Below, one piece after another: positions 27,231 to 46,754 of a stretch of 64,000 nt of DNA. Source of the DNA: Streptococcus mitis (GTDB lineage Bacteria > Bacillota > Bacilli > Lactobacillales > Streptococcaceae); contig MKYF01000001.1 in assembly GCA_001914195.1 (NCBI GenBank), positions 46,595 through 110,594 of the forward strand. Reading direction: 5' to 3'. The position numbers were made by a program, and so were the translations under genes. The notes under the pieces were generated by a model, which saw nothing but the letters and a program-made list of their open reading frames with translations, made no database searches and was not told the origin of the DNA. Numbering within the stretch: position 1 is the stretch's first letter; each line of letters starts with the position of its first letter.

Positions 27231-27277
27231 TGTCTTAAAAGGTTGATTTCTGGGTTTGTCATCATTTTTGTCATCAC

Positions 27278-27790
27278 TTATAACGAACTAACAGCTTTCT
27301 CATAAAATGAGACGGCTGTTTTTGCTTTTTCTTTGGAGAGATGACTGTAAGTGTCCATAGTCATAGCCAGTGTAGAATGACCTAGACGGTGTTGTAATTC
27401 TTTATATGGTATTCCAGAGTTTAGCAAGAGACTAGTGTGTGTCTAAAACCGTGGAATCCAATATTAGGTACACCAGCATGTTTGAAACCGAGTTTTTAGA
27501 CGTGTACTCAAGGTTTTGTTACTTGGGTAATTATGGATAAAGTCAGAGAATACAACTATTTCAGTTCGCCCTAACTTCCAAGCCTCTTGAATTTATCTAA
27601 GCTGGTGGGCTTTCAACATGGCAACAGTCGCTTGATCTATATCGATATCACGATAGCTTGCTTTTGATTTTGGGCTATTGATTTGCTCTAGGTGGTTTAG
27701 TGTCTTTGTAATGCTAATGGTTGCATTCTCTAGGTCAATATCGGACCAGCTAAGGGCTAGAGCTTCATTGATACGATAATCGATTTCTAT
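27278..27790 (-). pseudogene. Degraded tyrosine-recombinase (phage-type integrase) remnant
   Basis: The reverse-strand translation gives integrase catalytic-domain segments (EIDYRINEALALSWSDIDLENATISITKTLNH ... GIPYKELQHRLGHSTLAMTMDTYSHLSKEKAKTAVSFYEKAVSSL*). These are interrupted by stops and frame changes, so there is no intact ORF. Two 10-bp direct repeats, tttgtcatca (27255-27278), sit just downstream of its stop. Confidence 0.6.
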
Positions 27791-27997
27791 ATACCAAAAA
27801 TACCTATCGAGTAACTATAAAGTCAGCGCGAATCAAATACTTTCTCTTCTTTCTTGTGGCAAGTTGAATTAATAAAATAATTATGATATTCTTATTTCTA
27901 TAAGGAAAAAATTAAAATGATTATAAGATAGTTTATTTAGAAAATTATCCAAATTTTATTTCTAATTAATTTAGAAATCATTAACAAGGGGGATATT

Positions 27998-29722
27998 ATG
28001 GCTGAAAGAATAATACATCAAGCTGATCTTCATGAGATCGAGAACAACTTGCGCTCTATCCATGAAGGATTACAAACAATTAATGCTAGAGTTGATGTAG
28101 CAAACGAAAATCTTGAAATCGTGTACGATGAAATCGGTAGTTTAGCACAAGAATTTCATGAATTTGTGAATATCCAACAAAAAGCTAATAGACTAGGACG
28201 AGCTGAAACTCGACTGGTAAAAATCCGTCAAGAAATTGAGAAGAAATACGGACATTATGATATTGTTCGTCGTACTACCACAGGGATTTTACAAGCTGAT
28301 GATTTAGGAATTGTCAAAAAAGAAACAATCAGCACTGCTACAGAAGAACTAATGATATCAACTCCAGGTTACTGGCTTGCTCCATGCTTGGTTGCATTAG
28401 CGGCATGGATAAATGATCAACCCGAGTTAGCTGAAAAAGCAGTCAAGGAAGGGATTAAACGAAACGATGAAAAGACCTCCCTTTTCTTTGCCTTAATTTG
28501 TAGAAGAGCTAACAGAAAGAACGCATGCCTTAAGTGGACTCAACGTTATCTAGCTAATCAAGATGAAGAAAATCTTGACAGAAATTCTATTATTATCTTA
28601 GATGCTTTTGCGAGTGGACTCTTGGGAGCTGATACCGAAGGAGTCATCTCACGTCAAATGAATGAATGGCTCAGTCGACTTGAAGAAAAACCTGGTTTTA
28701 CTGAACGGCAAACAGAACAATGGTCCGAAGCCATTAACTTAAAAAGAAGTGAACTAGATGAAGATTTATACCCTAACCTAAGAAAATATAGTAATAGTTG
28801 GCCTGTCCTAGAGGATATTTTAGAAGGTGCTCATCTTCATGAACAAATGTTAAACTATTTAACTGATATTTTTGAGAGGAAAGGGTCTACAGAAAGCGTC
28901 AAAGAACAATTAGATGATATTCTAGACACACTTGTGACTGATTTTGATAACGAGGAATTAGCTCTTCGAAAACAAGAAAAATTCGAGCAGTTTGTGGTTG
29001 ACTTCGGAGGAGATGACAATCGTGCTCATCAAAACATGAGTATTGAAGTGACTGCGTTTGAAACCCATAAAGATTTCACCCAGTTGCTTACCGATGCAGC
29101 AATGAAACCCGAATCTTCTCACTCAAGTATATCTACCCAAAAATTTGCACTGGCTCTTTCTCGTGATTGGGTAACAAACGCTTATAATGATGTTACTGCA
29201 AAAAATCGTATGAAGATTCCTTACGAAATTGAAATTAATGTAGATACTTTTAACGATAAATCAATAGATGGCCAAAACGAAAGCGAGTTGGTTGAAAAAT
29301 TTAATTCTCAGATTGACTCTGAAAAAGAACAAACTTTGGCAAACTACTTCCCAAGTTTATTTGATAAATTCCTTTTGTATGGTGGTATAGCTATCGGAGT
29401 AATCGGTTTAATGATGATGATTTCTGGCAATGTTTTCTTAGGTTTAATAGCTATTATAGCAGGTATTTTTATGGTTCTTAAGCATAAATCTAATATTGAA
29501 AATATTGAAACAAGTCGCAAGAAAATTGAAGAACAGTACGAGGATAAGAGAGTTAATGGTGAACAAATTATAAGAGCTATTCTGGCTGAAATTGTAGACT
29601 TTAGAATTGAATTTGCAGAGAAAGATGCTGAAAGTACTAAAGTCCTTGATTTCCTCGAACAAATAAGACCTGAACAATATGTAAACAAGTTGGCATCATC
29701 CAATAGAAAGATTAAAATTTGA
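27998..29722 (+). CDS. Hypothetical 574-aa protein: N-terminal coiled-coil/helical-repeat region, C-terminal TM hairpin plus ~80-aa tail (first gene of candidate novel AAA+ system)
   Basis: It has a strong RBS (aaggggg-N6-ATG). Two adjacent hydrophobic helices lie near aa 455-495 (LLYGGIAIGVIGLMMMISGNVFLGLIAIIAGIFMVL). No recognisable catalytic motif was found. It is AT-rich. Confidence 0.55.
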   Translation: MAERIIHQADLHEIENNLRSIHEGLQTINARVDVANENLEIVYDEIGSLAQEFHEFVNIQQKANRLGRAETRLVKIRQEIEKKYGHYDIVRRTTTGILQADDLGIVKKETISTATEELMISTPGYWLAPCLVALAAWINDQPELAEKAVKEGIKRNDEKTSLFFALICRRANRKNACLKWTQRYLANQDEENLDRNSIIILDAFASGLLGADTEGVISRQMNEWLSRLEEKPGFTERQTEQWSEAINLKRSELDEDLYPNLRKYSNSWPVLEDILEGAHLHEQMLNYLTDIFERKGSTESVKEQLDDILDTLVTDFDNEELALRKQEKFEQFVVDFGGDDNRAHQNMSIEVTAFETHKDFTQLLTDAAMKPESSHSSISTQKFALALSRDWVTNAYNDVTAKNRMKIPYEIEINVDTFNDKSIDGQNESELVEKFNSQIDSEKEQTLANYFPSLFDKFLLYGGIAIGVIGLMMMISGNVFLGLIAIIAGIFMVLKHKSNIENIETSRKKIEEQYEDKRVNGEQIIRAILAEIVDFRIEFAEKDAESTKVLDFLEQIRPEQYVNKLASSNRKIKI

Positions 29723-29735
29723 GGAGGTAATTGAC

Positions 29736-29918
29736 ATGGATGAACAATATAAAGGCGATAGTAAGCTATCATCTAATAACACCACTCCATTTAAGAGCAT
29801 TAATACTGAAGAGGATTTTAGTGAAGAACCTATGAGCGTGTTTGCTGAGGGACTCCCTTCATGGGACATCGTGCCTCCACAATTGCTAGTCAGAAGGAAA
29901 CGGCAAAATAATGAATAA
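29736..29918 (+). CDS. Small acidic hypothetical protein (60 aa), second gene of cluster
   Basis: It has a strong RBS (gaggaggt, 8 nt upstream). Its stop overlaps the next start by 8 nt, which suggests translational coupling. Confidence 0.45.
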   Translation: MDEQYKGDSKLSSNNTTPFKSINTEEDFSEEPMSVFAEGLPSWDIVPPQLLVRRKRQNNE

Positions 29919-30375
29919 ACCACAAACATATGCAGAATGGGTAAATGTCTTAACTATTTTTAAAAACAAAGATGATGATGAAACAGTTTTAAAAATGATG
30001 AAATCTGGGACTATCGAATGGCAATACGGTGTGGCGGAACGTTTCTCTACAAAGTTAATTGACGCTGTTAATTACCGTATGAATGTAGCTTCAGATAAGT
30101 TTCAAAAAGATTTACTAAAATCCCAAGGATACGAGGGAGCTATCATTCAATCAATTCTTTCGTTGAGAAAAGAAATGGCGTTCTTAGCTGAAGCAATCAA
30201 TCTTCCTGCAATTCCAGATAAAGAGCGACAACACTACTTAAATCTCGTTATAGAACAAGCTAATAGTATGCAGAAATCTTTAGAAGAATCTGCAAAACAG
30301 GACCGAAGCGGGAAAATGTCAAGTATTATTAGAAATCATAAAATTAATTCTTTTTTAAATAAAGGTGAACAGTAA
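29911..30375 (+). CDS. Hypothetical 154-aa helical protein, third gene of cluster
   Basis: Its start overlaps the upstream gene, and the next gene starts 1 nt after its stop. No known domain was recognised. Confidence 0.5.
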   Translation: MNKPQTYAEWVNVLTIFKNKDDDETVLKMMKSGTIEWQYGVAERFSTKLIDAVNYRMNVASDKFQKDLLKSQGYEGAIIQSILSLRKEMAFLAEAINLPAIPDKERQHYLNLVIEQANSMQKSLEESAKQDRSGKMSSIIRNHKINSFLNKGEQ

Positions 30376-32583: not shown

Positions 32584-32792
32584 TTGTTCTTTACATTGAT
32601 ACAAGGGGAGATACAAGAGATAGTTCTTGCTTTTATATATGTAAGTGCTGAATACTAAGTATAATATAAGCTAGATGCCTCTGATACTTGTTGTTCAAAA
32701 GAGCTTTTTTATTTGGTTATTTATTTAATATAGTACAACAGTTTATTTTTTAGGAGGAAATACTTATGTCTCAAGTTTCAGATAATCAAATG

Positions 32793-33037
32793 ATGTTTAA
32801 GGTTTTAGGATCTGCTGTAAAAAATGCCAGACATTGGAAGACAATGTTCGTCAGGCTTGCCAATAGGAAGGTTTAGAGATCACGGTTGAACACGAAAGTG
32901 ATTTTGTAAAGATTTCTAGTCATGGTGTGATGTCTACACCTGCATTAGTTCTTAATGAAGATGTTGTATCTTCTGGGAAAGTATTGAAAGTTCAAGATGT
33001 GAAGAAAATCATTAGGGAAGTATCATATGTTGATTAA
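32793..33037 (+). pseudogene. Thioredoxin-fold 'redox-active disulfide protein 2'-like gene, inactivated by a 1-nt deletion and an in-frame TAG
   Basis: The N-terminal MMFKVLGS is in one frame. The rest (CKKCQTLEDNVRQACQ*EGLEITVEHESDFVKISSHGVMSTPALVLNEDVVSSGKVLKV...) is in the -1 frame, with a TAG replacing a residue. The CxxC and VMSTPALV motifs are diagnostic. Confidence 0.6.
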
Positions 33038-33119: not shown

Positions 33120-33527
33120 ATGAATCAAGTAACCATTTATCACAATCCAAATTGTGGAACGTCTAGGAATGTCCTAGCTATGATTCGAGCAGTAGGAATT
33201 GAACCACAAATTATCGAATATCTGAAAACACCACCGAAAGAAAAAGAATTATAACAGTTATTAGTGCAGAGGGGTATTAGTGCTAAAGAATTACAACGTA
33301 CCAATGTTCCAGAATTTGAAAAATATTATTTACAAGAAGCTAAATCGGAACACGATATTATAGACGCGATGATGATAGAACCAATTTTGATAAATCGTCT
33401 AATCGTCGTAACGGAAAAAGGAACGCTATTATGTAGACCATCAGAGAGAGTATTAGAAGTTTTACCTAAATCATTGGATAAAGATTTTGTAAAAGAAGAT
33501 GGTGAGATTGTTTGTAGTATCCGATAA
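33120..33527 (+). pseudogene. arsC: Arsenate reductase (glutaredoxin-coupled ArsC, Spx/ArsC family) with an in-frame TAA at codon 45
   Basis: MNQVTIYHNPNCGTSRNVLAMIR... (catalytic Cys in NPNCGTSRN) continues in the same frame after a TAA at 33252-33254 (...PPKEKEL*QLLVQRGISAKELQRTNV...LLCRPSERVLEVL). The full length matches R773-type ArsC. Confidence 0.7.
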
Positions 33528-33687
33528 ATAGAAAAAAGCTCTGCCATCGAAATGATAGCAGGGCTTAACTTCAATATCCAAATGATGTATTTATCTAAAA
33601 AAGTAGTGATTAGAATGATTTACCTTGCAATGTAGTGAAATTTAACAAAAAGAAAAAAACGCTTGAACTCGATTTTTATCATCGTTT

Positions 33688-34266
33688 TCAAATATCAAAA
33701 AAAGTTCTTAAAAATCTATTAACATTTGTATATGGATTTATATCAAAGTTATTTACAATGGAAGCCATATGATCACTATTTGATAGAGCTTGTGCGTATG
33801 ACCTAGAAATAACAGTTATTGTTTTTTCATCTGTTTTTATATATTTTTTAGATAAATGATGTTCTAACTTATCAATTAATTGTTTAGCATCTAAAGCTCT
33901 AGTCACTCTTTCATAATGTAACAATAGCCATAATTCAAAACATTTATTACAAAAAACGAGTTCAGAATTGTTTTCTTCACAAAGACTTTTTAAGGTAGTA
34001 AGTTTTTCAGATGAAGTATTATCTTTATCGATAACTAATACAATTTTGACAGGAGATGTTTCAAAGTTATGCCTTGTATAACACCTTTTTACATAATAAA
34101 ACAAATCCAATCCCTGCTTATTTACTTGCTTAGCAGAATAGCTTATTCCACCTTTAATACCAACAATAGATCTTAGAGCATCAAAATAAATTTTTTCTGT
34201 TTCCCCTTCTGTATAAAGTTTTATTTGAGGTGGATTTTTCCTCTCCTGACTTCTTCTTCTACCCAT
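33688..34266 (-). CDS. RloB-like (AbiLii) protein, TOPRIM-like
   Basis: 192 aa. The N-terminal motif KLYTEGETEKIYF matches the RloB signature (CEGxxTExxYF). It lies immediately downstream of an AAA_21-type ATPase. Confidence 0.7.
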   Translation of the reverse strand: MGRRRSQERKNPPQIKLYTEGETEKIYFDALRSIVGIKGGISYSAKQVNKQGLDLFYYVKRCYTRHNFETSPVKIVLVIDKDNTSSEKLTTLKSLCEENNSELVFCNKCFELWLLLHYERVTRALDAKQLIDKLEHHLSKKYIKTDEKTITVISRSYAQALSNSDHMASIVNNFDINPYTNVNRFLRTFFDI

Positions 34267-34270
34267 AGTA

Positions 34271-35467
34271 TTAATCCCCTTTAATAATTTCCTTTAATTT
34301 CCCAACAAGAATTTCAGGGACAGCACCAAATAAACCTTTATTGTATCTTTTTACATAAGAATAATCTTGTCTATTTACTTCGGATTTAAAATCGTAAACA
34401 GAATATAGTTCTGTTGCTCCATCAGCACTTCTGTCTGTGAAATAAATCTGTTCTTTTTTGAAGCCAGCATCCATTAGCTCTAATTCATGACTCGTTAAAA
34501 TTACTTGGTTCGAATTTTCATCTGAGTTAAATACATCAACAAGTGCTTTTGATAAACCTAGATGAAATGAATCGTCAAATTCATCTATAAAAATAGTACT
34601 ATTATTTAAAGTTAATAATATAGTTGATAACGCAATCATTTTTTTAGTACCATCAGACTCTTGACTAACTGATAAATCGAAAGTTTCTCCATCATGATCT
34701 CTATGTTTAATCTTTGTTTGAAACTCTGTGAAGCCAGCTGTAGATATAAATAGCTGTTTTATCTCATCTGGCATTGTAACATTAGATTGAAATTGAAGAA
34801 CTTCGAAATCTACAATATTGAAATCGGCAGCTTGTAAAAAATTAATTAATTTTTTCTTTCTTTTTTTATCTTTTTGTAACTTATAAAGATGATCGAAAAC
34901 AGGCGGAACCTCTCGAGAGATAAAAATTAAATTATTTCTAAACCAACGAAACACATTTAAGCAGTGATGATCATTAAATGCCTTTCCAGTGATTAAAAAT
35001 AAGCTATCCATTCGTGTTTTGTTCTTTAGCAATTCCAATTCTCTCGGTATAACCTCATAATTTCCTTTAATACGATGGAAATATGTCACAAACTCATTTC
35101 CCTCTTCTATTTCAAGATGCTCCTCAATTATTTCATCAGAGCAATAGGAAACTGAATATTTATATATAGTTTCTTCTATTAAGATTGTTATCTCGAAATT
35201 AATACTATCAGGATTATTAGCGTAAGTTGGAAATGGATTTTTTAGTTTATCATCTTTTAAAACTAAATTTTGAAACGTTCTGAGAGATTTCATTAAATTA
35301 CTTTTCCCTGAAGCATTTGGCCCAAAAATAATAGCACTCTTTAAAATTCTATGACCATTAAAAGATGCAAACTCATTATTTTTGCGAGTTTTCTTAACGG
35401 CTTCCATTGAGAAATATGCTTCATCTTTGTATGAGTAGCAATTATTAAATACAAACTCCAATAGCAT
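34271..35467 (-). CDS. AbiLi-like AAA_21-family ATPase (abortive-infection ATPase partner of RloB)
   Basis: The Walker A is AIIFGPNASGKSNLMKSL. The likely start is ATG at 35467 (MLLEFVF...), with an AAGGAGGT RBS 6 nt upstream. The ORF track extends to 35539 via GTG. The ATPase-then-RloB gene order matches AbiL. Confidence 0.7.
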   Translation of the reverse strand: MLLEFVFNNCYSYKDEAYFSMEAVKKTRKNNEFASFNGHRILKSAIIFGPNASGKSNLMKSLRTFQNLVLKDDKLKNPFPTYANNPDSINFEITILIEETIYKYSVSYCSDEIIEEHLEIEEGNEFVTYFHRIKGNYEVIPRELELLKNKTRMDSLFLITGKAFNDHHCLNVFRWFRNNLIFISREVPPVFDHLYKLQKDKKRKKKLINFLQAADFNIVDFEVLQFQSNVTMPDEIKQLFISTAGFTEFQTKIKHRDHDGETFDLSVSQESDGTKKMIALSTILLTLNNSTIFIDEFDDSFHLGLSKALVDVFNSDENSNQVILTSHELELMDAGFKKEQIYFTDRSADGATELYSVYDFKSEVNRQDYSYVKRYNKGLFGAVPEILVGKLKEIIKGD

Positions 35468-35650
35468 AACTGACCTCCTTGAAAACGAAAATTCGTATTC
35501 TATATTATAGATTATAACATTTTTTTTACATAAGTTCACGAAAATAGTTGTGTAAACGAAAACTATGTCTAAATACTAACATTTTAAAATTATTCTGAAA
35601 AATCATTTTCCCCAATTATCAAGTCAGGTGCCACAAAGTCATACCTCTGA

Positions 35651-39054: not shown

Positions 39055-39080
39055 TTCAAGAATTTCCTTTCGTTTTGTTT

Positions 39081-39190
39081 TTGGCACATTGGCACAGTTT
39101 GAATGCGAGACAATGCCAAGACCAGTCTCGCAGTATTGTTAGTATTAAGGATATTTAGAGTAAGTAGTATCATTGGCACAGTTTTGTAAT
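39081..39190. promoter_or_regulatory. Origin-like region upstream of rep: three ttggcaca(g) iterons plus a perfect 8-bp-stem hairpin
   Basis: The iterons are at 39081-88, 39089-96 and 39173-80. The hairpin tgcgagac-N13-gtctcgca is at 39104-39132. This resembles the dso (bind and nic loci) of Rep_2 plasmids. Confidence 0.35.
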
Positions 39191-39196
39191 ATAAAA

Positions 39197-39247
39197 AAAT
39201 GGTGGAAGGACTTTTTGTCTTTGACAAAGTCCTTCCACCGATTTTAT
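39197..39247. terminator. Strong bidirectional terminator (11-bp perfect stem flanked by A-run and T-run)
   Basis: aaaaaaatggtggaaggactttttgtctttgacaaagtccttccaccgatttt. Confidence 0.6.
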
Positions 39248-39265
39248 AGTCTATTTGTTCATATT

Positions 39266-39829
39266 TTATTTCAATCTACTATGATTGTAAGAGCCTGTTG
39301 CTTGATACCAACGACCATCACTAGGCGCTATATTGGTAAAGAACAAGTCGGGTTCCATAGTGTGTAATTTTGTTTTAATAGCAGGGAATATTTCTTGTAC
39401 TTTCAAGAAACTTTCATGATTGTTTGGAACTTTCCACCGTAATATAGCCCCATCTTTTGTATAAATCATCGATAAGGTTAACAAAGAACGATTGGCCTTG
39501 TTGACGATTGATTTTTGAGTAGAAATCTGTTTATTTTGAGTATCGAGAATAGAATCGGACTCAAAATGGGCAAATTTTCTCAGTTCGTAGGTTGCTCGTA
39601 ATCCTTTGAGCATGTATTTTATATCACTTTTAAACCAGTGATAAAGGAAAAGAGAGAAAAGTAGGATTGAAAAAATTATCAAAGGATAGAAAAGAAAAAT
39701 AACATTTTGATAATTAATTTCAATGTTCAGATTCTGTTGAATCAAGATAAGTATAAATATAGGAAAACAGCTTACTACAGTTCCTATACATAAGATTTTG
39801 AATAGATTATACTTGTTTATCATAAGCAC
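39266..39829 (-). CDS. Hypothetical membrane protein (two N-terminal TM helices)
   Basis: 187 aa, AT-rich. Its start overlaps the ftsK-like stop. No known domain was recognised. Confidence 0.45.
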   Translation of the reverse strand: MLMINKYNLFKILCIGTVVSCFPIFILILIQQNLNIEINYQNVIFLFYPLIIFSILLFSLFLYHWFKSDIKYMLKGLRATYELRKFAHFESDSILDTQNKQISTQKSIVNKANRSLLTLSMIYTKDGAILRWKVPNNHESFLKVQEIFPAIKTKLHTMEPDLFFTNIAPSDGRWYQATGSYNHSRLK

Positions 39830-40929
39830 CTCTTGTTATAGTATGGGGTGAGGAGTGGCATGATGTTGCTGTCATGCTTTCCATCACTAAATTTGACAAT
39901 TCCTGTCCCTATTCCGCTAGGAACAACAATATTTTCAATATGAGCGTTTGGCAATAAAAACTGAGTGGTGTTAGTATTTATCTCTCCCAAAATAATAGAA
40001 CAGTTAATTTGTTCTCTAACTGCTAGATTTCCTCCAAATGCGGTAGCATCAAAACGTTGGGAAACTAGGATAAGTGAAACTTTAGTAGCTCTACCTAGGA
40101 GAGCCACAGTTCCTAATAGTTGTGCAAACGTATCTCGTGCTTGTTTTGAAGAACCCTGAACAAGAGCAAGTAGCTCATCTATGATAATGTATTTGCGTTT
40201 TAATGTAGCTTTTGGGTTTTCTAAAAGTATTTCTTGACGTTCGTAAATCTTATTGATAGCATCCCCCAGAATTTCATTTACTTCTGTGATAAAACTATTT
40301 AAGTTAGCCCCTCTTTTCGGAGACAGGACAGACAGATTTAATTCACGACCTAGAGAATAAATATCGGCACGTTTAGGGTCTACGGCTACAATATCGTCAG
40401 TTATTTTACGAATACACCTAATAAGGTATTCTAGGAAATAACTTTTTCCTGAACCAGATGAACCACTGATAGCTAAATGAACAACATCATTTAGATTGAT
40501 ACTAACTTGGTTTGACATGAGCGGAATCCTAATCTCACTAACTTCTTGATTTATAAAATGTTGGATATCAGGAATAGTTAGTCGAGTTGGAATACCATTT
40601 ACCCAAGGGAAGAAAAAACCTCTAGCAAGATTAGGGTCACCTGTCTTGTATGGGATGAAAATTGCATTACTTTGTAACATAAGCGTTTTATACGGGTAAA
40701 GGATGCCAGAACAGATATCTGCTATCTTAAAATAGAGGCTTTTATCTAAAACATAGGAAACAGGAAGATTGGGAATGAAAAACATTCCCTTATCTTCTGC
40801 CTCTAAAGAAATGGAGAAAGAGTTTGTAAAGCTCGTTTCTCCGTTGATATCTAGTGTATTGTTGAGATTACTTGTAATGAATTTAGCTAATTCATTTTCA
40901 GACATAGGCATTTTAATAGGGATAGTCAT
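39820..40929 (-). CDS. FtsK/SpoIIIE-family DNA translocase (coupling-protein-like, Tn916 Orf21/TcpA-type)
   Basis: 369 aa. Walker A is ISGSSGSGKS, Walker B is IIIDELLAL, and the family-typical motor domain is present. Confidence 0.8.
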   Translation of the reverse strand: MTIPIKMPMSENELAKFITSNLNNTLDINGETSFTNSFSISLEAEDKGMFFIPNLPVSYVLDKSLYFKIADICSGILYPYKTLMLQSNAIFIPYKTGDPNLARGFFFPWVNGIPTRLTIPDIQHFINQEVSEIRIPLMSNQVSINLNDVVHLAISGSSGSGKSYFLEYLIRCIRKITDDIVAVDPKRADIYSLGRELNLSVLSPKRGANLNSFITEVNEILGDAINKIYERQEILLENPKATLKRKYIIIDELLALVQGSSKQARDTFAQLLGTVALLGRATKVSLILVSQRFDATAFGGNLAVREQINCSIILGEINTNTTQFLLPNAHIENIVVPSGIGTGIVKFSDGKHDSNIMPLLTPYYNKRCL

Positions 40930-40939
40930 AAACTACCCC

Positions 40940-41263
40940 CTAAGCTTTGTGAATGCCTGTGGCACGGAAATACGCATTTGATTTAATCTGAATTGCTTCT
41001 AATTTATCAAATGCTATTTTCTCACCAATGTTAAATTCAGATAAATCTGGTTTGTCATCCGGAAGGAACTTCACTTTAAAAGGATTATGAGTATCCGTAG
41101 CAATCCAAATCTGATAACCAATAACTTTATCTGTCCGTTTATCGTTTTTATATTCATACTGTGTTTCTATTTGCAGTCCTACAATATAAGTTGATTCATT
41201 TCCAAGAAGTTTCTCAGCATTTTCTGAGCTATAATAGCTTGATGATTTGACTGTGAATGCCAT
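40940..41263 (-). CDS. Small hypothetical protein upstream of the FtsK-like gene (DUF961/Orf23-like position)
   Basis: 107 aa. The position is equivalent to Tn916 orf22/orf23. The family assignment is by context only. Confidence 0.35.
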   Translation of the reverse strand: MAFTVKSSSYYSSENAEKLLGNESTYIVGLQIETQYEYKNDKRTDKVIGYQIWIATDTHNPFKVKFLPDDKPDLSEFNIGEKIAFDKLEAIQIKSNAYFRATGIHKA

Positions 41264-41365
41264 ATTTTTGACCTTTCTTATTAAGGAGGAGAATAATTTT
41301 TATTCTACAGGAGTAATAGTTGTATTTAACAACTATATGTTGATTTATCTCATAGTGCCCATCTC

Positions 41366-41397
<32 letters not shown>

Positions 41398-41480
41398 GAA
41401 ATGCCACGCGTGGCTAAAGGGAGTTAAGGTCAAGTGATTTTATGTCATCAAAAATTAACAAAAATGTAACATAAAAACAC

Positions 41481-41510
41481 TTGACAGAGTGTTAATTTTT
41501 AGGTTATACT
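41481..41510 (+). promoter_or_regulatory. Near-consensus promoter TTGACA-17-TATACT driving a structured ~190-nt transcript
   Basis: ttgacagagtgttaatttttaggttatact. Confidence 0.5.
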
Positions 41511-41517
41511 CCCTTTA

Positions 41518-41709
41518 GGGAAATAAGATAAGAGATGGGCAAGAGATAAGAAAAAAATTTTTTTCATAAAGAAAAAGGGGAGTCGGGGCGTAGCCCCGTT
41601 GAGATAAGTTAGTTTCGGGTACCCGAAACTAACTAGAATGGGGCAGTGCATAAAAATTTATGCATTATTAAAAATGTAAACAGTTGAGCTTTTCTTGGCT
41701 GTTTTTTTG
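41518..41709 (+). ncRNA. Candidate structured small RNA, or sso/oriT-like region of the IME (several perfect hairpins ending in a terminator)
   Basis: The hairpins are cggggc-gta-gccccg, agttagtttcggg-tac-cccgaaactaact (13-bp perfect stem, 41607-41634), and tgcataaa-aa-tttatgca. The terminal acagttgagc...ggctgt is followed by a T7 run. There is no ORF. Confidence 0.35.
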
Positions 41710-41797
41710 TTTTCTAAAAGAAAAAATGAGAGTTTCTTCAACTTATAATTTATAGTAAAGTTCGGGAAAAATAAATTATAAAATCCTCGGAAATGGC

Positions 41798-41828
41798 TTG
41801 ACAAAAGCATTTCGGGGGGGGGTATAAT
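41798..41828 (+). promoter_or_regulatory. Promoter of CAP-domain surface protein gene with a G9 homopolymeric tract in a 19-nt spacer (candidate phase-variable switch)
   Basis: TTGACA (41798-803), then aaagcatttc plus GGGGGGGGG (41814-41822), then TATAAT (41823-28). The spacer is 19 nt. Losing 1-2 G would give the optimal 17-18 nt. Confidence 0.5.
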
Positions 41829-41917
41829 ATAGTAGGAATATTTTAAATGAGTCTATAAATCGAATGAGGAAGCGCTTGCTTCTTGGTTTTGTTAACGACT
41901 TTTATAAAGGAGACAAT

Positions 41918-44686
41918 ATGAATAAAAAAGATATTTTATTAAGCGCTGGCTTAACAACTATTCTTGTTGGGACTGGTGTTGCAAATACAACTGTCCAAGC
42001 AGAAGAGGTTGATTCTGGTCAACCCAAGCCTACGGTGAAGACGACTCCTGTTCATGTTACAGAACAAGACGTGAACACGGCAAAAGCTAATGTGAACAGC
42101 GCCCAAGCTGATGTCAACGCAAAACACGGCACAGTCGACCAAGCAAAAGCTGATAAAGTAAAAGCTGATGGCAAAATTGACTTAATCAATAAAGACATTG
42201 ACACTGCTAATAACGCAAACAAAATTATCAATGCTCAAAACGATATTATCACCAGCAAAACAGCAGACAAGACAAACGCAACAAATGATTTGAATGCCGC
42301 TAAAGATGGTGAACGTGATGCGCATACAGCACTAGACAATGCTAACACCGCAAAAACAGAGGCTGATAATGCTCGTGACGCTAAGAAAGCTGATGTTGAT
42401 ACGAAACAAGCAGACCTTGACGCAATCACAGATGCTAACGTGCGTAAAAATATCACAAACACAACTGATAAAATTTCAAACGTTGATAATGATTTGAACG
42501 CTAAAGGTGCACAAATCACAGCTACAGACACTAAAATTGCTGCTAAACAAGGGGAAATCGATAACTATAGAGTTAAAGTTATTTCAACAGATTTAAACCC
42601 TGATGAACGTAATCACACAGCTCATGATAATCTTGATGATTATGCGCATAACCACGGTCCGTATCGCAATAAACAAATGGAACCGGTTAATTTCCAAGGT
42701 GTTGACATCAAAGAAATTGATGCAACTAAAGACATGATTGATTTCACAGAGGCTTTAGCGGATTATAAGAAAGAACCGTTTGACCGTGTTACCAGAAAAT
42801 TAAAAGAACGCCCAGCATATCGCTACAAGGTAGATAACAAAGGTATTTCAGATGCATTTGTAAAATTAATTAACCAACTACGTGTTAATAACAACTTGAA
42901 GGGTGATATGGTGGTTGACGATGAGTACCTAGCATACGCGCAAAAACGTGCTGATGAAATGCAGAAAACAGGCCTATTGTCACACCGTACAAGTTTAACC
43001 GACAAACCTGGCTATATTGAAAGAGTTCAACCAGGGGAAAACGTTGAAAACATCCTTGGTGGTGCATATGGTCAACTTATTGACCGTGATGGCGAATATT
43101 TAATGTTCGACCACATTGTAACTAACGAAACATTAGCCTACGAAATGTTGTTGGGTTGGTATGATGACTACAATAACGTGCGAGGTTTAGATTATGGACA
43201 CCGTAAAAACCTATTGACACCAACAGGTGGTAAAATGGGTGTTGCTCTATCTACAATCAATGGTGTAGAAAAAACAACTTATTTCGGTTCATTCAATGCT
43301 AGCGCTTTCAAGGATTCTACTTATGAATGGGATGACGAATACAACGAATTCTTTCAGTTAAACCGAAGTCAGAGTGAGAAGGATTATTGGAACAATAACA
43401 GTAACTTCAAACAAGATGACCCAATGAACCCAACATTATACGGCAAAAAGATGAAGTTTATCGCGGATACTCATTATGTGTTTGTTAAACGTCAAATCAT
43501 CGATGACAGACCAAAAATGCAAGCAGAGTTAGATGCATTGAAAGAACAAAAAGCGACACAAGAGCGCGAACGTGATGCATTGGTTGCGAAGAAAGCTGAT
43601 TTGACTCAAGAGTTAGATGCTTTAAACAACCAATTGAATGATATTGCTACAGCGCGTACAAATGCGACAACAGCTCTAAATCAAGCAAAATCTGATTTAG
43701 CTACACTTACAGCGACCGCTCAAGACAAAGCAGATGCTGTTATTCAAAAACAAAAAGAGTTGGATAAAGCAACTGCTCGTGTAAACGATGTAACTGCACG
43801 TATCAACACAATTCAAAGTGAAATTGATGCGGCAACAAGCAAACGTGATAATGCTATGCGTGTCCACGCGCAATTACCACAATTACGTGCAAGTTTAACA
43901 CAGGCAGAAGCCGATAGAGCAAGTGTGGAACAACGCATCACAGTTGCAGAGCAAGACTTAGCGGATGCCAAAGCTCGTTTGACACAAGCACAAGCTGACC
44001 ACAAATACAAATCAGATATCTTTTCAATCGATAAGATGCTAAATCTATATACTAATGGTAACCGTGTCATTTCAGCAACACCGAAAGTTGCCCCAACAGT
44101 AGATGAATTACCAGAATTGGATATCACAGCTGACATCCCAAGTGATTTGACTACAAAACAAAATCCTGACGGTATTGGTGCGACACCAAAAGTAGCTCCA
44201 ACCGTAGACGAATTGCCAGAATTGGATATCACCGCTGACATTCCAAGTGATTTGACTACAAAACAAAATCCTGATGGTATTGGTGCAACACCAAAAGTTG
44301 CTCCAACTGTTGATGAATTACCAGAATTAGATCCAAGTGCTATCATTGATAAGCCAGCGGACAAGCCGGCAGATAAGTCAGCGGACAAGCCAGCAGATAA
44401 GCCAGCGGACAAGCCGGCAGATAAGTCAGCGGACAATCCAGCAGATAAGTCAGCGGACAATCCAGCAGATAAGCCAGCGGACAATCCAGCAGATAAGCCA
44501 GCGGACAATCCAGCGGATAAACCAACGGATAAAGTAACAGATAAACCGATGGACAAGTTGACAGGACAACAAGTTTTACCAAATACAGGAGAAAATCCTA
44601 GGGTAGCAAATTCAATTGTTACAGTTGGTTACGGATTATTAGCAATGATTGGTTTAGCAGGATTATTTGTTAAGAGGAAAAACTAA
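41918..44686 (+). CDS. LPXTG-anchored surface protein with N-terminal coiled-coil region, central CAP (SCP/PR-1-like) domain, second coiled-coil, 35-aa tandem repeats and PADK repeats
   Basis: The likely start is ATG at 41918 (signal peptide MNKKDILLSAGLTTILVGTGVANTTVQAEE), with an AAAGGAG RBS. The ORF track start 41864 is upstream. CAP-like motifs are GENVENILGG, LLGWYDDY and GHRKNLL. The sorting signal is LPNTGE plus a hydrophobic stretch plus KRKN. Confidence 0.75.
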   Translation: MNKKDILLSAGLTTILVGTGVANTTVQAEEVDSGQPKPTVKTTPVHVTEQDVNTAKANVNSAQADVNAKHGTVDQAKADKVKADGKIDLINKDIDTANNANKIINAQNDIITSKTADKTNATNDLNAAKDGERDAHTALDNANTAKTEADNARDAKKADVDTKQADLDAITDANVRKNITNTTDKISNVDNDLNAKGAQITATDTKIAAKQGEIDNYRVKVISTDLNPDERNHTAHDNLDDYAHNHGPYRNKQMEPVNFQGVDIKEIDATKDMIDFTEALADYKKEPFDRVTRKLKERPAYRYKVDNKGISDAFVKLINQLRVNNNLKGDMVVDDEYLAYAQKRADEMQKTGLLSHRTSLTDKPGYIERVQPGENVENILGGAYGQLIDRDGEYLMFDHIVTNETLAYEMLLGWYDDYNNVRGLDYGHRKNLLTPTGGKMGVALSTINGVEKTTYFGSFNASAFKDSTYEWDDEYNEFFQLNRSQSEKDYWNNNSNFKQDDPMNPTLYGKKMKFIADTHYVFVKRQIIDDRPKMQAELDALKEQKATQERERDALVAKKADLTQELDALNNQLNDIATARTNATTALNQAKSDLATLTATAQDKADAVIQKQKELDKATARVNDVTARINTIQSEIDAATSKRDNAMRVHAQLPQLRASLTQAEADRASVEQRITVAEQDLADAKARLTQAQADHKYKSDIFSIDKMLNLYTNGNRVISATPKVAPTVDELPELDITADIPSDLTTKQNPDGIGATPKVAPTVDELPELDITADIPSDLTTKQNPDGIGATPKVAPTVDELPELDPSAIIDKPADKPADKSADKPADKPADKPADKSADNPADKSADNPADKPADNPADKPADNPADKPTDKVTDKPMDKLTGQQVLPNTGENPRVANSIVTVGYGLLAMIGLAGLFVKRKN
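44075..44530 (+). repeat. Intragenic tandem repeats: 3 x 105 bp (ATPKVAPTVDELPELDITADIPSDLTTKQNPDGIG) followed by ~15 x 12-bp PADK/SADK/PADN repeats
   Basis: The periodicity is visible in the nucleotide sequence. The many antisense or low-complexity ORFs here are artefacts. Confidence 0.85.
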
Positions 44687-44734
44687 ATTAAGGGTGATTA
44701 AAGATAGGAAATTTGAAGTATGAACAAATGAAGT

Positions 44735-45433
44735 ATGAACAAATATAGTAGAGAACAATTGATGGAAATGTTTGGATATAGTTTCCAAGTTTTGAAAGCT
44801 GTATCTGATTTAAATAAAGCTATTTCAGCAGAACAAAATAAAGCATATAGTGGTATTATGGGGAACTATGGCAAGCTTAAAAAAGTATATAATTTAAGTG
44901 TATTAGGTTTTATAGCATTTTGCTTCTTGTTAGGAATTATTCAAGGAACTGTACTCTCGTTATTTGAGTATATTATATGGGGAGCGATTTCCTATGGGGT
45001 TTTTCAACTTCTGTTTTCCCCACTTGTTCTGATTGTAAAAGCTGTGTATAAGCACATTGCAAAAAAAGAATTTACAAATGCTGCTAATAATGATGCTTCT
45101 AATGCTTATCGCCAAAAAGGTATTGAGTTAATGAAAGATGAACAGTTTGTGGCATATAAAAGAGAAATTCCAGATTCTTACTTTAACATGAATGACCTTT
45201 ATTTACTTTATAGTTATTTAGAGACTTACAGAGCCGATAATTTTAAAGAGGCCGCCAATTTATTAGCAGAAGAGAAACATCGTGATAAGGTCGAGTATAG
45301 TCAAGAAGTTATGCAAAAGAGTTTGGCTTCTATTCAAGCAAATGCTACTTATCAATCTGTCATTCAAACAATTCATTTATTAGAGACTCAGAAATTACAT
45401 CGTACAGTGAAAATAGGAGTTTTTGGGGAATAA
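44735..45433 (+). CDS. Hypothetical membrane protein (IME cargo)
   Basis: 232 aa with two or three TM helices in the first half. It is AT-rich, and no family was recognised. Confidence 0.4.
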   Translation: MNKYSREQLMEMFGYSFQVLKAVSDLNKAISAEQNKAYSGIMGNYGKLKKVYNLSVLGFIAFCFLLGIIQGTVLSLFEYIIWGAISYGVFQLLFSPLVLIVKAVYKHIAKKEFTNAANNDASNAYRQKGIELMKDEQFVAYKREIPDSYFNMNDLYLLYSYLETYRADNFKEAANLLAEEKHRDKVEYSQEVMQKSLASIQANATYQSVIQTIHLLETQKLHRTVKIGVFGE

Positions 45434-45470
45434 AAAATGGGAGCTATCTAGTTATAACTAGGTAGTTTCT

Positions 45471-46046
45471 TTGGAAAGGTGTATAATGATGTTATTTTTT
45501 AGAAACGTAGTAAATTATGTAACAAAATACTCAGAATTAGAATATATCCTAGAGAATGATAAACTTGTGATAAAGAACTATTATAAACAAAGTGCAGGAG
45601 AACGAGAAACGTTTGAAGAATATGTTAGACAACGTGGCGTAAGAGTTTATCGTATACTTTCGTTCAAAAAAGTACCTCTAGAAAGGTTTAGTGAACTGAT
45701 TAGGAAAGTTAAAGACTATTGTAAACAGATAGATACTCCTCTTGAAGAAATTGATAATACAAAGTTCCCAGACTACAAGGATAAAAGTTATCGAGTGCCA
45801 GAAAGATTATATGGGATAGACTATTATAAAAATGGTAGTTTGTTGGTAAGTGGTAGAATGCAAGATGTAGCAGTTATCATGAGATTTAGGCCTAATCTTA
45901 GAGAATTTTTAAAGAGTGATAATCTAATAATTGAAGTGGAAGAACGGGACGGGAAACCAATTGGTGAAAGTGTAAAATCTATTTGGTCGCAAGGGTTTAC
46001 GACAATGACGAAAGAAATTGAATCAAATAGTGTATCCGAAGATTAG
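45471..46046 (+). CDS. Hypothetical protein (IME cargo)
   Basis: 191 aa. It has no recognisable motif and has an AT-rich codon composition. Confidence 0.4.
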   Translation: MERCIMMLFFRNVVNYVTKYSELEYILENDKLVIKNYYKQSAGERETFEEYVRQRGVRVYRILSFKKVPLERFSELIRKVKDYCKQIDTPLEEIDNTKFPDYKDKSYRVPERLYGIDYYKNGSLLVSGRMQDVAVIMRFRPNLREFLKSDNLIIEVEERDGKPIGESVKSIWSQGFTTMTKEIESNSVSED

Positions 46047-46086
46047 TTTGCTGTTTATATAAAAATAAATAGTACGAGGTGTTAGA

Positions 46087-46473
46087 ATGCAACTAATAAA
46101 TTATGAAGCATTTTTAAGTGCTAGAGATGCTCTAACTTTTGAAGAATGTCAAAACATTCATCAGACAATTCTAGACAATATTGGTAACGATGAGGAAATT
46201 TTAGAAGTATGGTCTGATTTTTTGCAAGCTAGTATAAGCTATGCTCATATTCGTAGCCAGTGGTTGCTTTGGGAACGTGAAGAGCGTCAACAAAAAGATG
46301 AAGGTAGAACATCAAAGCATGAGCGAGTAATATATTGTCTAAAGCTTCTTAGTCGTTATCTAGGGCAAGAAGGTGTGGACGTTTCATGGTTTGATTCTAT
46401 AGAGGATAACAGAAAGCAAATAGGAGATTTTGCTTGTTATATAGCTTATATCTACTCTATAAATGCTAGATAG
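46087..46473 (+). CDS. Hypothetical protein (IME cargo)
   Basis: 128 aa. It has an RBS (gaggtg), and no recognisable motif. Confidence 0.4.
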   Translation: MQLINYEAFLSARDALTFEECQNIHQTILDNIGNDEEILEVWSDFLQASISYAHIRSQWLLWEREERQQKDEGRTSKHERVIYCLKLLSRYLGQEGVDVSWFDSIEDNRKQIGDFACYIAYIYSINAR

Positions 46474-46477
46474 AAAA

Positions 46478-46503
46478 TGCAGGCTGATTAATGCCTGCAT
46501 TTT
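46478..46503. terminator. Perfect hairpin terminator (aaatgcaggc-tgattaat-gcctgcattt)
   Basis: A 10-bp perfect stem lies 4 nt after the stop of the 128-aa ORF. Confidence 0.55.
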
Positions 46504-46637
46504 GAACTTCAATTATTCATTCAAAAGATTTTACTATTTTCATGAATAAACTTGAAGTGAAAGAATAAAAAATGAAGAGCTACTCATCTGTGAAGTAGCT
46601 CTTCTCTTATATCCGTAATCTCTTTTTATTTATCTGA

Positions 46638-46660
46638 AAATGTAGAGAAAAATGTAGAGA
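46638..46660. repeat. Second copy of the paired direct repeat aaatgtagaga-N1-aaatgtagaga (candidate attR of the IME), ~95 bp downstream of rpmG
   Basis: It matches 36220-36242. Confidence 0.5.
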
Positions 46661-46754
46661 TTCGGCTGATTTGTATTGCAATACATTGAAATTTGAAATT
46701 TCAAGAATCGCTTAAAATCAGGTTTTCTCACGCCTACTGACGTGTAGTGAATCT

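Follow-up and report, generated by a model that had tools for sequence, protein, structure and literature searches.

The interval between the ribosomal protein genes rpsD and rpmG in this Streptococcus mitis contig raises the question of which mobile elements built it and where each of them ends. It was examined within a window of 64,000 nucleotides (the whole stretch of DNA analysed; Table 1) and compared with related loci from other genomes, designated here by L numbers, in which Pfam Ribosomal_L33 matches the same gene, rpmG. The original prediction was a region of tandemly accreted elements, with a degraded island holding AT-rich cargo next to rpsD and an intact integrative mobilizable element (IME) next to rpmG. 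All of the sequence features it listed are present, a "DUF961-like" label aside, and its tandem-element interpretation was broadly right; the element boundaries it drew were wrong, as judged from junctions in genomes with the same integrase. The GC content is 0.29–0.40 within the interval versus 0.42–0.47 in the flanks, and the content differs widely among related strains (TelA; RelB/ParE; ISL3; an AAA+ cassette). The interval is very likely a composite island between two integration hotspots, comprising an intact IME and decayed older elements. The analysis shows which genes it holds, where its junctions lie, how its parts are distributed among genomes, and that its 12-mer repeats co-vary with integrase clade.

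Table 1. Features of the rpsD–rpmG interval, in window coordinates
Feature	Position	Strand	Basis or remark
rpsD (ribosomal protein S4), left anchor of the variable interval	26571..27182	+	Pfam Ribosomal_S4 and S4
TTTGTCATCA x2, 12-bp period, beside the integrase-remnant stop	27255..27276	.	only two copies in window
Tyrosine-integrase remnant, C-terminal ~166 aa only, frameshifted, with stops	27278..27775	-	tblastn
AAA+ cassette: 574 aa, 60 aa, 154 aa, 525-aa AAA ATPase, 160 aa	27998..32583	+	PF00004 AAA
Thioredoxin_3 pseudogene (frameshift and stop)	32767..33037	+	three-frame reading
arsC pseudogene, one in-frame stop	33121..33527	+	PF03960
Relic right (P) arm of older rpmG-type element	33586..33668	.	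one 12-mer-like copy and ~60 bp rpmG-downstream module
AbiL two-gene abortive-infection system: AbiLii 33688-34266, AbiLi 34271-35539	33688..35539	-	Pfam RloB and AAA_21
Truncated IS3-family element: orfA 35651-36061, terminal inverted repeat to 36116	35651..36116	-	HTH_28 and HTH_Tnp_1
17-nt stub of the older element's P arm (start of rpmG-downstream module)	36117..36133	.
Intact IME	36134..46771		10.6 kb; "3' rpmG opposite" kind
attL core: relic rpmG stop and last five codons (TTACTTAACTTCTGTAA)	36134..36150	.
P' arm of IME with 12-mer pair 36220-36242	36151..36245	.	pair 3 bp from int stop codon
Tyrosine integrase, 421 aa, intact	36246..37511	-
Excisionase-like MerR-type HTH protein, 82 aa	37604..37852	-	PF13411 at 5.5e-6
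Rep_2/HUH + SF3-type helicase protein, putative non-canonical relaxase (Rel_PF01719-PF00910 type)	37858..39087	-
Candidate oriT/origin region	39088..39250	.	ATTGGCACAGTTT x2, GCGAGAC/GTCTCGC hairpin, 23-nt inverted repeat
187-aa protein, two N-terminal transmembrane segments	39266..39829	-	hydropathy scan
FtsK/TcpA-like coupling-protein ATPase, 369 aa	39820..40929	-	PF01580 at 25.4 bits (cut-off 24); DUF87
107-aa ORF of conserved module	40940..41263	-	kept in all same-integrase loci
Cargo: 940-aa LPXTG surface protein	41864..44686	+	Pfam Gram_pos_anchor and CAP
Cargo: three ORFs (232 aa with transmembrane hairpin, 191 aa, 128 aa)	44735..46473	+
P arm of IME	46574..46754	.	terminator-like hairpin, 12-mer pair, 94-bp module
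attR core within rpmG 3' end (CTATTTAACCTCTGTAA)	46755..46771	.
rpmG (ribosomal protein L33), target gene, coding sequence preserved	46755..46904	-	translation

Remnants on the rpsD side

As predicted, a degraded tyrosine integrase follows rpsD, beside two copies of TTTGTCATCA that start at 27255 and 27267, the second ending 1 bp from the stop codon of the remnant. The remnant is 48–49% identical to residues 222–387 of intact rpsD-adjacent integrases (L002, L008) and only 30% identical to the integrase of the IME; it is also found in L021, L023, L029, L030, L032, L049, and L066. Intact 387-aa integrases occupy the same position and orientation in other S. mitis-group genomes, which bears out the proposal of an older element at the rpsD 3' end; in L002 and L008 the intact relatives are accompanied by primase (D5_N/VapE) and DUF1492 genes, as is usual in phage-like chromosomal islands. 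Judged by these similarities, the remnant is a dead rpsD-specific integrase of the phage-like chromosomal-island type. The conserved rpsD flank reaches 27259, and homology to the remnant-free loci L016, L017, and L019 breaks at 27259/27260, within the first TTTGTCATCA copy; the pair could represent integrase-binding repeats of a lost rpsD-type element.

The cargo assigned to a single degraded island (the AAA+ operon, trx-like and arsC pseudogenes, AbiL, and an orphan IS3 orfA) was found in full, but it does not form one unit: the region resolves into the rpsD-type integrase remnant, the AAA+ cassette, a decayed rpmG-type right end, and an IS3/AbiL insertion. The five-gene AAA+ cassette matches phrog_8638 at 1e-103 and was scored by PADLOC as IetA-like (4.7e-34), with no IetS partner. 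Copies are 94.5% identical in L066 and 98% identical in L018, where the cassette lies beside RelB/ParE without an integrase remnant; the same cassette is present in a Blautia chromosome (59–89% aa identity), away from any integrase. By these matches, the cassette is widespread.

The Thioredoxin_3 pseudogene, once repaired, matches PF13192 at 1.1e-21. The relic P arm, in which the 12-mer-like copy is AAAAAAGTAGTGA (33597–33609), can be aligned with the rpmG-downstream module of other strains; L075, L079, and L088-type elements have homologous integrase-distal ends, and L032 has the complete version. In reverse complement, the stub adjoining the IME reads TAGGTCATTCCGTTTCA; L067-type arms and the L048 attL flank have matching first bases after the rpmG stop. 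Between arm and stub lie the AbiL genes (PADLOC: AbiLii 3.3e-18, AbiLi 3.8e-74), a region matched among the fetched loci only by L100 and L101, in the same arrangement, and an IS3-family element that lacks orfB and within which L048 and L090 cease to be homologous to the window flank. Arm and stub together represent the decayed right end of an older element of the rpmG type, which the AbiL and IS3-orfA insertion has split. The left att site of this older element was not detected, and no third rpmG-core copy is present in 27183–36133.

The IME and its attachment sites

The 3' end of rpmG is a published IME hotspot at which tandem accretion is common (PMC5357655, PMC7563491), as the original prediction had held. 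The intact IME expected there was found with its core genes, encoding a tyrosine integrase, a MerR-like excisionase, a Rep_2-HUH + helicase "relaxase," and a TcpA/FtsK-like coupling protein, and with the membrane protein; neither VirB4 nor another type IV secretion gene was detected in it. The xis gene lies between the relaxase and integrase genes, as in the published compact IME module (PMC5357655). The putative relaxase carries PF01719 (5e-14) and PF00910 (6.1e-7), with an HUH motif at H77-I-H79 and Walker A at 238; Walker A of the FtsK/TcpA-like ATPase is GSSGSGKS. The candidate oriT or origin, whose 23-nt inverted repeat has arms at 39192–39214 and 39226–39248, is proposed solely from its place upstream of the relaxase gene. 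Family searches gave no match for the 187-aa protein, and the 107-aa ORF, previously labelled DUF961-like, gave no such Pfam match even at E ≤ 5 and no match in Pfam, NCBIfam, or PHROG. For the integrase, a predicted-structure model of moderate quality (mean pLDDT 68; below 50 in the C-terminal 58 residues) had lambda Int as its best fold match; its small N-terminal domain had no specific match in the fold search, and a Pfam search of the first 80 residues found no arm-binding domain. Besides its CAP domain, the LPXTG protein has a coiled coil and a tract of 12-nt repeats (44300–44587), and it resembles SEC10/PgrA surface-exclusion proteins at a sub-threshold score. The three-ORF cargo varies among IME copies, 44687–46073 being without an alignment of ≥150 nt in most related copies.

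For determination of the IME boundaries, comparison was made with 12 genomes whose integrase is 99–100% identical to that of the IME. Homology to the window begins in these loci at 36134 (36144/36145 in two of them), 86 bp to the left of the paired 11-mers, at a relic rpmG 3' end. In ten IME copies compared at the left junction, the element follows at least four different left flanks; every flank terminates in a copy of the rpmG stop and five codons, and to the left of that copy stands the rpmG-downstream sequence native to the strain. The window contains just two copies of TTAACYTCTGTAA. The attR 17-mer is constant in five of the six genomes carrying the IME, the attL 17-mer varies with the host, and only TTACAGA is common to both. 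Polymorphisms place the likely crossover in this shared 7-bp core, TCTGTAA at 36144–36150 (attL) and 46765–46771 (attR), which reads TTACAGA in the rpmG direction. At sites of the L001 and L019 type, which are free of 12-mers, window homology resumes at 46756. On this comparative evidence, recombination by the IME integrase takes place in the last codons of rpmG.

The 11-mer AAATGTAGAGA is present in exactly four copies in the window, in the two pairs originally noted (36220–36242 and 46638–46660); 94 bp (predicted as ~95 bp) separate the right pair from the rpmG stop, and the paired repeat extends to 36 nt at 83% identity. These pairs, treated as 12-mers in comparisons among elements, lie inside the IME, 69 bp (int side) and 94 bp (rpmG side) from the core, and all four copies share one orientation. 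In the P arm, which also has a hairpin at 46574–46604, the 94-bp module replaces the native rpmG downstream region, and its conservation follows the element and not the host. A tandem pair with a 12-bp period lies 0–7 bp past the integrase stop in nearly all of 84 integrase copies (79 loci), with a relic rpmG end at a clade-specific 84–109 bp in 57 of the 84, and in 27 other loci a 12-mer pair lies 93–97 bp beyond the rpmG stop. The rpmG-side and int-side pairs are of the same sequence type in 26 of 28 elements, and five such types track integrase clades, which have one common core and different 12-mers; between types, integrase identity is 61% in the N-domain versus 74% in the catalytic domain. 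Because both pairs are of one type and the type shifts with integrase clade, the 12-mers look like arm-type sites bound by the integrase N-terminal domain, and not like the crossover site.

It had been proposed instead that the paired 11-mers are direct repeats made by integration, an attB/attP identity segment delimiting the element at 36220 and 46660, which now appears very improbable. They are the most conspicuous direct repeat around the integrase-to-cargo block, and in "empty-looking" strains (L011–L018, L020), whose sites hold one to three similar 12-mers, homology breaks at 46637/46648. However, homology links the left flanks of these sites to integrase-distal element ends, so the sites carry leftover arms and are not untouched. 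Where the paired repeat had been expected as attB in element-free strains, sites without any 12-mer exist (L001, L019), and the attL flanks of L077, L088, L092, and L094 continue with L001-type 12-mer-free sequence. Together with the junctions in the 12 same-integrase genomes, which put the true ends ~90 bp outside the repeats, these 12-mer-free sites contradict the 11-mers as element ends or attB.

Alternative histories and proposed mechanism

S. mitis-group bacteria are naturally transformable, so part of the mosaic may stem from homologous replacement and not from site-specific accretion. Were this the main process, cassettes would have been swapped between strains via homologous recombination in the conserved flanks, and site-specific accretion would apply to the IME only. 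We consider this possible but doubtful. It would account for the very different content of the interval in related strains, for the different neighbours of the AAA+ cassette in L018 and its location away from any integrase in Blautia, and for the failure to find the older element's left att site; yet integrase remnants, relic arms, and relic rpmG cores are placed exactly at junctions, and the order fits the published pattern of decayed element, IME, and target gene (PMC7563491). A further reading takes the element for an integrated rolling-circle replicon or satellite, its HUH-helicase only replicating the excised circle and its FtsK-like ATPase serving segregation or packaging, not conjugation; this is decidedly unlikely. 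PF01719 and PF00910 are replication-initiator and helicase domains whose nearest solved relatives are viral replication-associated proteins, and the relaxase role of this family was proposed from gene association (PMC5357655). Against this, the tcpA, relaxase, xis, int order is as described for streptococcal IMEs, no capsid or packaging genes were found in the element, and near-identical copies are present in genomes that bear the labels S. mitis, S. oralis subsp. dentisani, and S. hohhotensis.

Under the favoured reading of a composite island, a lambda-Int-like tyrosine integrase would recombine the core in the last codons of rpmG, its N-terminal domain binding one 12-mer pair in each arm of the attachment site. 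The IME would bring its own last codons, stop codon, and ~94 bp of downstream sequence to rpmG, so that L33 is kept intact, and the old rpmG tail would be displaced to the far (integrase) end. We infer that the integrase binds the 12-mers and that the IME can be excised and mobilized. Excision would proceed via the MerR-like Xis, with a predicted attP junction in the excised circle of ...GTGAATCT-CTATTTAACCTCTGTAA-GGAGTAGACAG... and a predicted repaired site of ...GACCTA-TTACTTAAC(T/C)TCTGTAA-ACACAACG..., and transfer would employ the HUH-helicase "relaxase" and TcpA-like coupling protein on the mating pore of a co-resident conjugative element. The IME probably entered the rpmG-side att site of the older, now decayed rpmG-type element, whose cargo would have included the Thioredoxin_3 and arsC pseudogenes and whose arm the IS3/AbiL insertion would later have split.

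Relation to known systems

Lambda Int and Tn916 Int are heterobivalent tyrosine integrases with arm-type sites. Like them, the IME integrase has an extra N-terminal domain before its core-binding and catalytic domains, and short direct repeats are predicted in both attP arms, tens of bp from the core. Set against these systems are the single orientation of the putative 12-mer arm sites and the use of different 12-mers by clades that share a core.

In its target gene, int opposite rpmG, ~10-kb size, compact tcpA-relaxase-xis-int module, PF01719 + PF00910 relaxase, and lack of a T4SS, the IME resembles the "3' rpmG opposite" IMEs (integrase family Tyr_6; e.g. IME_SintC270_rpmG, IME class 4, Rel_PF01719-PF00910; Coluzzi et al. 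2017, PMC5357655), a likeness of target, architecture, and domains. It differs from the IME_SintC270_rpmG type in its LPXTG/CAP surface-protein cargo and in pairing a 409-aa class-4 relaxase with a 369-aa TcpA-like protein, which resembles the Rel_PF01719-PF00910_5/TcpA_12 pairing later reported in S. salivarius.

As in the S. salivarius CIME-IME-target-gene arrays at rpmG, rpsI, and fda (PMC7563491), the intact IME adjoins the target gene and the decayed element is the more distant of the two. Unlike in those arrays, no left att site could be detected for the older element here, and IS3/AbiL interrupts it, which makes it a remnant and not a CIME still mobilizable in cis; a second hotspot, rpsD, also borders the array. 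Gene-less att-bearing relics of ~130–220 bp (microCIMEs) have been described in S. salivarius (PMC7563491), and the 12-mer-plus-module relics may be of the same kind.

The rpsD 3' end is likewise a published island site (PMC4129442, PMC7487436). The remnant shares with SagCI and GBS PICI1 and PICI2 an integrase directly downstream of rpsD with its C-terminus towards rpsD, and differs in that only the C-terminal 43% of the integrase is left, with no island replication or regulation genes. Composite arrays at rpmG and islands at rpsD have already been published, and the IME belongs to a known type: the rpsD–rpmG patchwork is an ordinary one, made up of one intact 10.6-kb IME of a well-described streptococcal type and decayed remnants.

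Gene content of the interval between rpsD and rpmG

Domain searches recovered the genes that the original prediction had listed for this interval. The one label left unsupported was that of a 107-aa ORF as "DUF961-like", for which Pfam returned no match at E ≤ 5; at the same threshold, no arm-binding domain was detected on the N terminus of the integrase. GC content is 0.29–0.40 within the interval vs 0.42–0.47 outside it. A tRNA scan found no tRNA, so the element next to rpmG is not tRNA-targeting. Rfam (22 kb, E ≤ 1) gave sub-threshold matches only, such as frnS at 46475–46609 (35.9 bits, where gathering requires 60), and these were taken as chance.

Coordinates of features in and around the interval (window positions)
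Feature	Position	Strand	Remarks
rpsD	26571-27182		domain search
TTTGTCATCA, two copies	27255 and 27267		only copies in the window
rpsD-side integrase remnant	27278-27775		truncated, frameshifted
AAA+ operon, five genes	27998-32583		domain searches
Thioredoxin_3 pseudogene, arsC pseudogene			domain searches
Relic arm of older element	33586-33668		one 12-mer-like copy plus ~60 bp of rpmG-downstream module
AbiLii and AbiLi	33688-35539	minus	adjacent; domain searches
IS3-type orfA	35651-36061		domain search; without orfB
Stub after IS3 terminal repeat	36117-36133		17 nt; repeat ends at 36116
Core, attL	36134-36150		relic rpmG stop and last five codons
Repeat pair, int side	36220-36242		AAATGTAGAGA, two copies
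int	36246-37511		intact tyrosine integrase, 421 aa
Candidate oriT or replication origin	39088-39250		upstream of Rep/relaxase gene
LPXTG/CAP surface protein	41864-44686		940 aa; 12-nt repeat tract at 44300-44587
Repeat pair, rpmG side	46638-46660		AAATGTAGAGA, two copies
Core, attR	46755-46771		inside the rpmG 3′ end
rpmG	46755-46904	minus	
rpmF	46920-47102	minus	

For comparison, relatives were defined as contigs encoding exactly the S4 and IlvD proteins of the window. rpsD and rpmG are adjacent in several S. mitis-group genomes, with variable intervening content: a 268-aa protein and TelA (loci L016, L017, and L019), RelB/ParE and one gene (L013 and L020), ISL3 fragments (L001), or an AAA+ operon 98% identical to that of the window among other neighbours (L018). 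On the rpsD side, homology of these relatives to the window stops at 27259.

Crossover site and paired repeats of the element at rpmG

A scan of species-representative genomes with the window integrase returned 79 loci, 12 of which (labelled S. mitis, S. oralis subsp. dentisani, and S. hohhotensis) carry an integrase 99–100% identical to it. Homology with the window starts at 36134 in ten of the 12 and at 36144 or 36145 in two, about 86 bp to the left of the int-side repeat pair. In the ten copies inspected at sequence level, a copy of the rpmG stop and last five codons (TTACTTAAC(C/T)TCTGTAA and variants) lies immediately left of the junction, preceded by the strain's own rpmG-downstream sequence, giving at least four different left flanks. 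Within the window, TTAACYTCTGTAA occurs exactly twice, at 36138 and 46759. The rpmG-side 17-mer is constant in five of six genomes with the element, the int-side 17-mer varies by host, and the one stretch they always share is TTACAGA (plus strand, TCTGTAA). Taken together, the relic rpmG ends and the shared TTACAGA place the crossover within the last codons of rpmG. The integrative mobilizable element (IME) thus spans about 36134–46771, or 10.6 kb with one core copy counted. It replaced the rpmG tail synonymously, the L33 protein still ending in ...VFTEVK, and the junction of an excised circle is predicted to read GTGAATCT-CTATTTAACCTCTGTAA-GGAGTAGACAG. The arrangement of the window is also present in read set SRR3726344.

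The original prediction had instead taken the paired 11-mers as the limits of the element and proposed a search for the same pair as attB in element-free strains. The repeat itself was confirmed, with four copies in the 64-kb window forming two pairs; with flanking bases, it extends to 36 nt at 83% identity. As limits the pairs fail, because the 12 same-integrase loci continue about 86 bp beyond the left pair to the relic rpmG end. The pairs are better described as 12-mers (AAAATGTAGAGA; the variants GGTAGTGA, TGTAGTCA, and GGTTGCCA occur at other loci) and lie inside the IME. On the int side, 3 bp separate the pair from the integrase stop and 69 bp separate it from the core; on the rpmG side, the distance to the core is 94 bp. 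The proposal of attB is answered by sites that look empty. At L001 and L019, rpmG-side homology restarts at 46756, and the site consists of a plain terminator and no 12-mer. At nine other loci it restarts at 46608–46687, mostly at 46637 or 46648, and the restart point is marked by up to three tandem 12-mers (at least one) that are related in sequence. The left flanks of the 12-mer-bearing sites share homology with the ends of intact elements that lie away from the integrase, which identifies these sites as leftover right arms of earlier elements. Loci L011–L018 and L020 have no integrase and carry one, two, or three tandem 12-mers past rpmG (e.g. L017 near 9290–9330); these are of the TGTAGTCA, GGTAGTGA, or GGTTGCCA types, come with about 95 bp of element-arm sequence, and vary in copy number between strains. 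Such relics may be of the same kind as the gene-less "microCIMEs" of 130–220 bp in S. salivarius (PMC7563491), as judged from their description. For annotation, the limits of elements of this sort should be set at the relic rpmG codons and not at the 12-mer pairs, conspicuous as these are, and "element-free" sites with a 12-mer should be read as remains of earlier elements.

A shuffle test of the 11-mer allowing up to one mismatch gave 5 matches against 2.6 expected and was uninformative; the case for the repeats comes from conservation over the 79 loci, not from that test. In nearly all of the 84 integrase copies at these loci, a tandem pair with a 12-bp period lies 0–7 bp from the integrase stop. 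In 57 of the 84, a search for the rpmG-end pattern located a relic rpmG end 84–109 bp away, the distance depending on the clade, and wherever rpmG is in reach, a pair lies 93–97 bp past its stop. The rpmG-side pair is of the same type as the int-side pair in 26 of 28 elements, the two exceptions being L088, which is a tandem array, and L065, which has a single copy. Five 12-mer types (TCTCTACA, TCACTACC, TGACTACA, TGGCAACC, and CTCTACC) track the integrase clades, co-varying with the integrase and its N-terminal domain. From these patterns, the most likely role of the 12-mers is that of arm-type sites for binding of the integrase.

Clades that share the 7-bp rpmG core, each with its own arm 12-mer, might form mutually orthogonal recombination systems, a proposal we hold tentatively and with slightly more doubt than confidence. 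If true, it would explain how unrelated elements accumulate in tandem at one gene without mutual excision, and why one to three 12-mers are left over at most "empty" S. mitis-group sites. Tandem integrases of different 12-mer types, or an rpmG-side arm unlike the nearest integrase, were observed at L027, L035, L038, L071, L088, and L095/L070, natural arrays that could be used to test the independence of the types. The co-variation of 12-mer type and integrase clade likewise offers a ready set of natural variants for tests of arm-site specificity.

Older remnants and cargo

The original prediction also suggested that an older element had used the rpsD 3′ end, and this was borne out: intact integrases occupy the same place, in the same orientation, at L002 and L008, and the window remnant is 48% identical to them and 30% identical to the IME integrase. 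The L002 and L008 islands contain genes for a primase (D5_N/VapE) and for DUF1492. Published work has described phage-like chromosomal islands that occupy the 3′ end of rpsD; a member of that group would have a functional integrase and a primase/replication and regulatory module in about 15 kb. The window retains only a truncated, frameshifted integrase, a remnant of such an island and not a member of the group. Among close relatives, rpsD ends in either of two clearly distinct forms of its last codons and terminator, ...AAAATGCTTTAA... and ...AAAATGTTGTAA... (window 27170–27240 vs L002–L010, L013, and L020), one of which may be element-derived, as at rpmG.

Everything from this remnant up to the IME had been read as one degraded island, a part of the interpretation that did not stand. 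Remnant and AAA+ cassette are contiguous in S. halitosis (L066, 94.5% identity), and the cassette also occurs without the remnant at L018 and, as a whole, in a Blautia chromosome (59–89% amino acid identity). Copies of the cassette were seen at L018 (668–5430), L066 (12306–17592), and L102–L106 (8001–12886). It encodes an all-helical protein of 574 aa that has a transmembrane hairpin, a short protein whose C terminus bears the conserved peptide PxSVFAxGLPSWDxVPPQ, a 154-aa protein, a 525-aa AAA ATPase, and a 160-aa protein, for which no annotation beyond the AAA domain was found. The 574-aa protein has about 3000 "hypothetical" homologues and an AlphaFold model with a pLDDT of 44.5, too low for use in a structure search. 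The 525-aa protein is IetA-like (4.7e-34); Ietas pairs an IetA ATPase with an IetS serine protease, and no partner here matches IetS or any protease family, placing the cassette outside that system. The cassette may have a role in defence or stress as a module yet to be characterised.

A second decayed element belongs to the rpmG type. Its relic arm comes after the arsC pseudogene and a hairpin like an imperfect terminator, and is split in the window by AbiL and a truncated IS3. It is similar to the ends of the L075, L079, and L088 elements that lie away from the integrase; at L032 the same end is complete and joined straight to a relic rpmG core. The relic arm, the stub, and the attL core together indicate that the IME entered this older, since-decayed element at its rpmG-side att site. 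No second rpmG-core copy and no further 12-mers, which would mark its left att site, were found in 27183–36133. A CIME keeps both att sites and lacks recombination and mobilization genes; here only the right arm and core (33586–33668 and 36117–36150) remain, and the older element is a decayed remnant, not a CIME. AbiL was assigned with PADLOC from the adjacent genes for AbiLi (3.8e-74, AAA_21 ATPase) and AbiLii (3.3e-18, RloB), and two assemblies recovered by AbiLii look-up both have the window's arrangement. The same IS3-type orfA fragment also lies by the relic rpmG core in other strains with other integrase clades (window 35693–36109; L049 14263–14680; L090 11440–11854; L048 11370–11454), suggesting that IS insertion into an element arm is old or recurrent.

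Genes of the IME and comparison with known systems

Besides int, the IME encodes a MerR-like xis, a Rep_OBD and helicase protein that has both a Walker A and a HUH motif, a protein containing two transmembrane segments, an FtsK/TcpA-like ATPase, the 107-aa ORF, the surface protein, and three unknown ORFs. Copies 96–99% identical over 36134–41789 occur in 12 GTDB species-representative genomes with differing flanks, which bears indirectly on the excision and helper-dependent mobilization that would be expected of an IME. Integrase relatives at 65–74% identity come from genomes or proteins labelled S. suis, S. sanguinis, S. parasanguinis, S. anginosus, and Lactococcus, and rpmG adjoins them in the S. 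suis, S. sanguinis, S. parasanguinis, and Lactococcus loci. The candidate origin region contains ATTGGCACAGTTT twice, a GCGAGAC/GTCTCGC hairpin, and an inverted repeat of 23 nt whose arms are 87% complementary around a loop of 11 nt. The surface protein has a long coiled coil and weakly resembles SEC10/PgrA surface-exclusion proteins; its identity is only about 88% across copies of the IME that otherwise match at 96–99%.

IMEs are defined by their own integrase and a specific, att-bounded target, together with a relaxase, with or without a coupling protein, and no VirB4/T4SS (PMC7563491). The element has its own integrase and core copies in the rpmG 3′ end, its PF01719 plus PF00910 protein is the putative relaxase, and no VirB4/T4SS family scored above threshold in any of its ORFs. 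That protein falls in class 4 (Rel_PF01719-PF00910), with 52.9 bits for PF01719 (cut-off 24.6) and 30.3 bits for PF00910 (cut-off 21.5). The coupling protein fits TcpA, marginally, through a single PF01580 match (25.4 bits, cut-off 24), and its gene lies upstream of the putative relaxase gene with one ORF intervening. With int at the far end from rpmG and crossover in the last rpmG codons, the placement is that of Tyr_6, "rpmG opposite" (PMC5357655), a family for which amino acid identity above 40% to its named integrases would also be required.

The original prediction is right about the IME, about accretion, and about a remnant at rpsD, and wrong about the boundaries, the att site, and the single island. 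The locus adds to the cases in which elements of oral streptococci have accreted in tandem at genes for ribosomal proteins, its cargo being AbiL defence, a surface protein, and the AAA+ cassette; the sole mildly new point is clade-specific 12-mer arm sites with one common core. Coluzzi et al. 2017 (PMC5357655) described IMEs of family Tyr_6, located in the 3′ end of rpmG and carrying int "at the opposite end", PF01719 plus PF00910 relaxase candidates (IME class 4), TcpA coupling proteins, a compact tcpA–relaxase–xis–int module, sizes of about 10 kb, and frequent tandem accretion at rpmG. Lao et al. 2020 (PMC7563491) reported a PF01719-PF00910_5 relaxase with TcpA_12, "CIME-IME-target gene" as the commonest composite, and the most decayed element always farthest from the target gene. 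The structure of the window agrees with all of these features as described.
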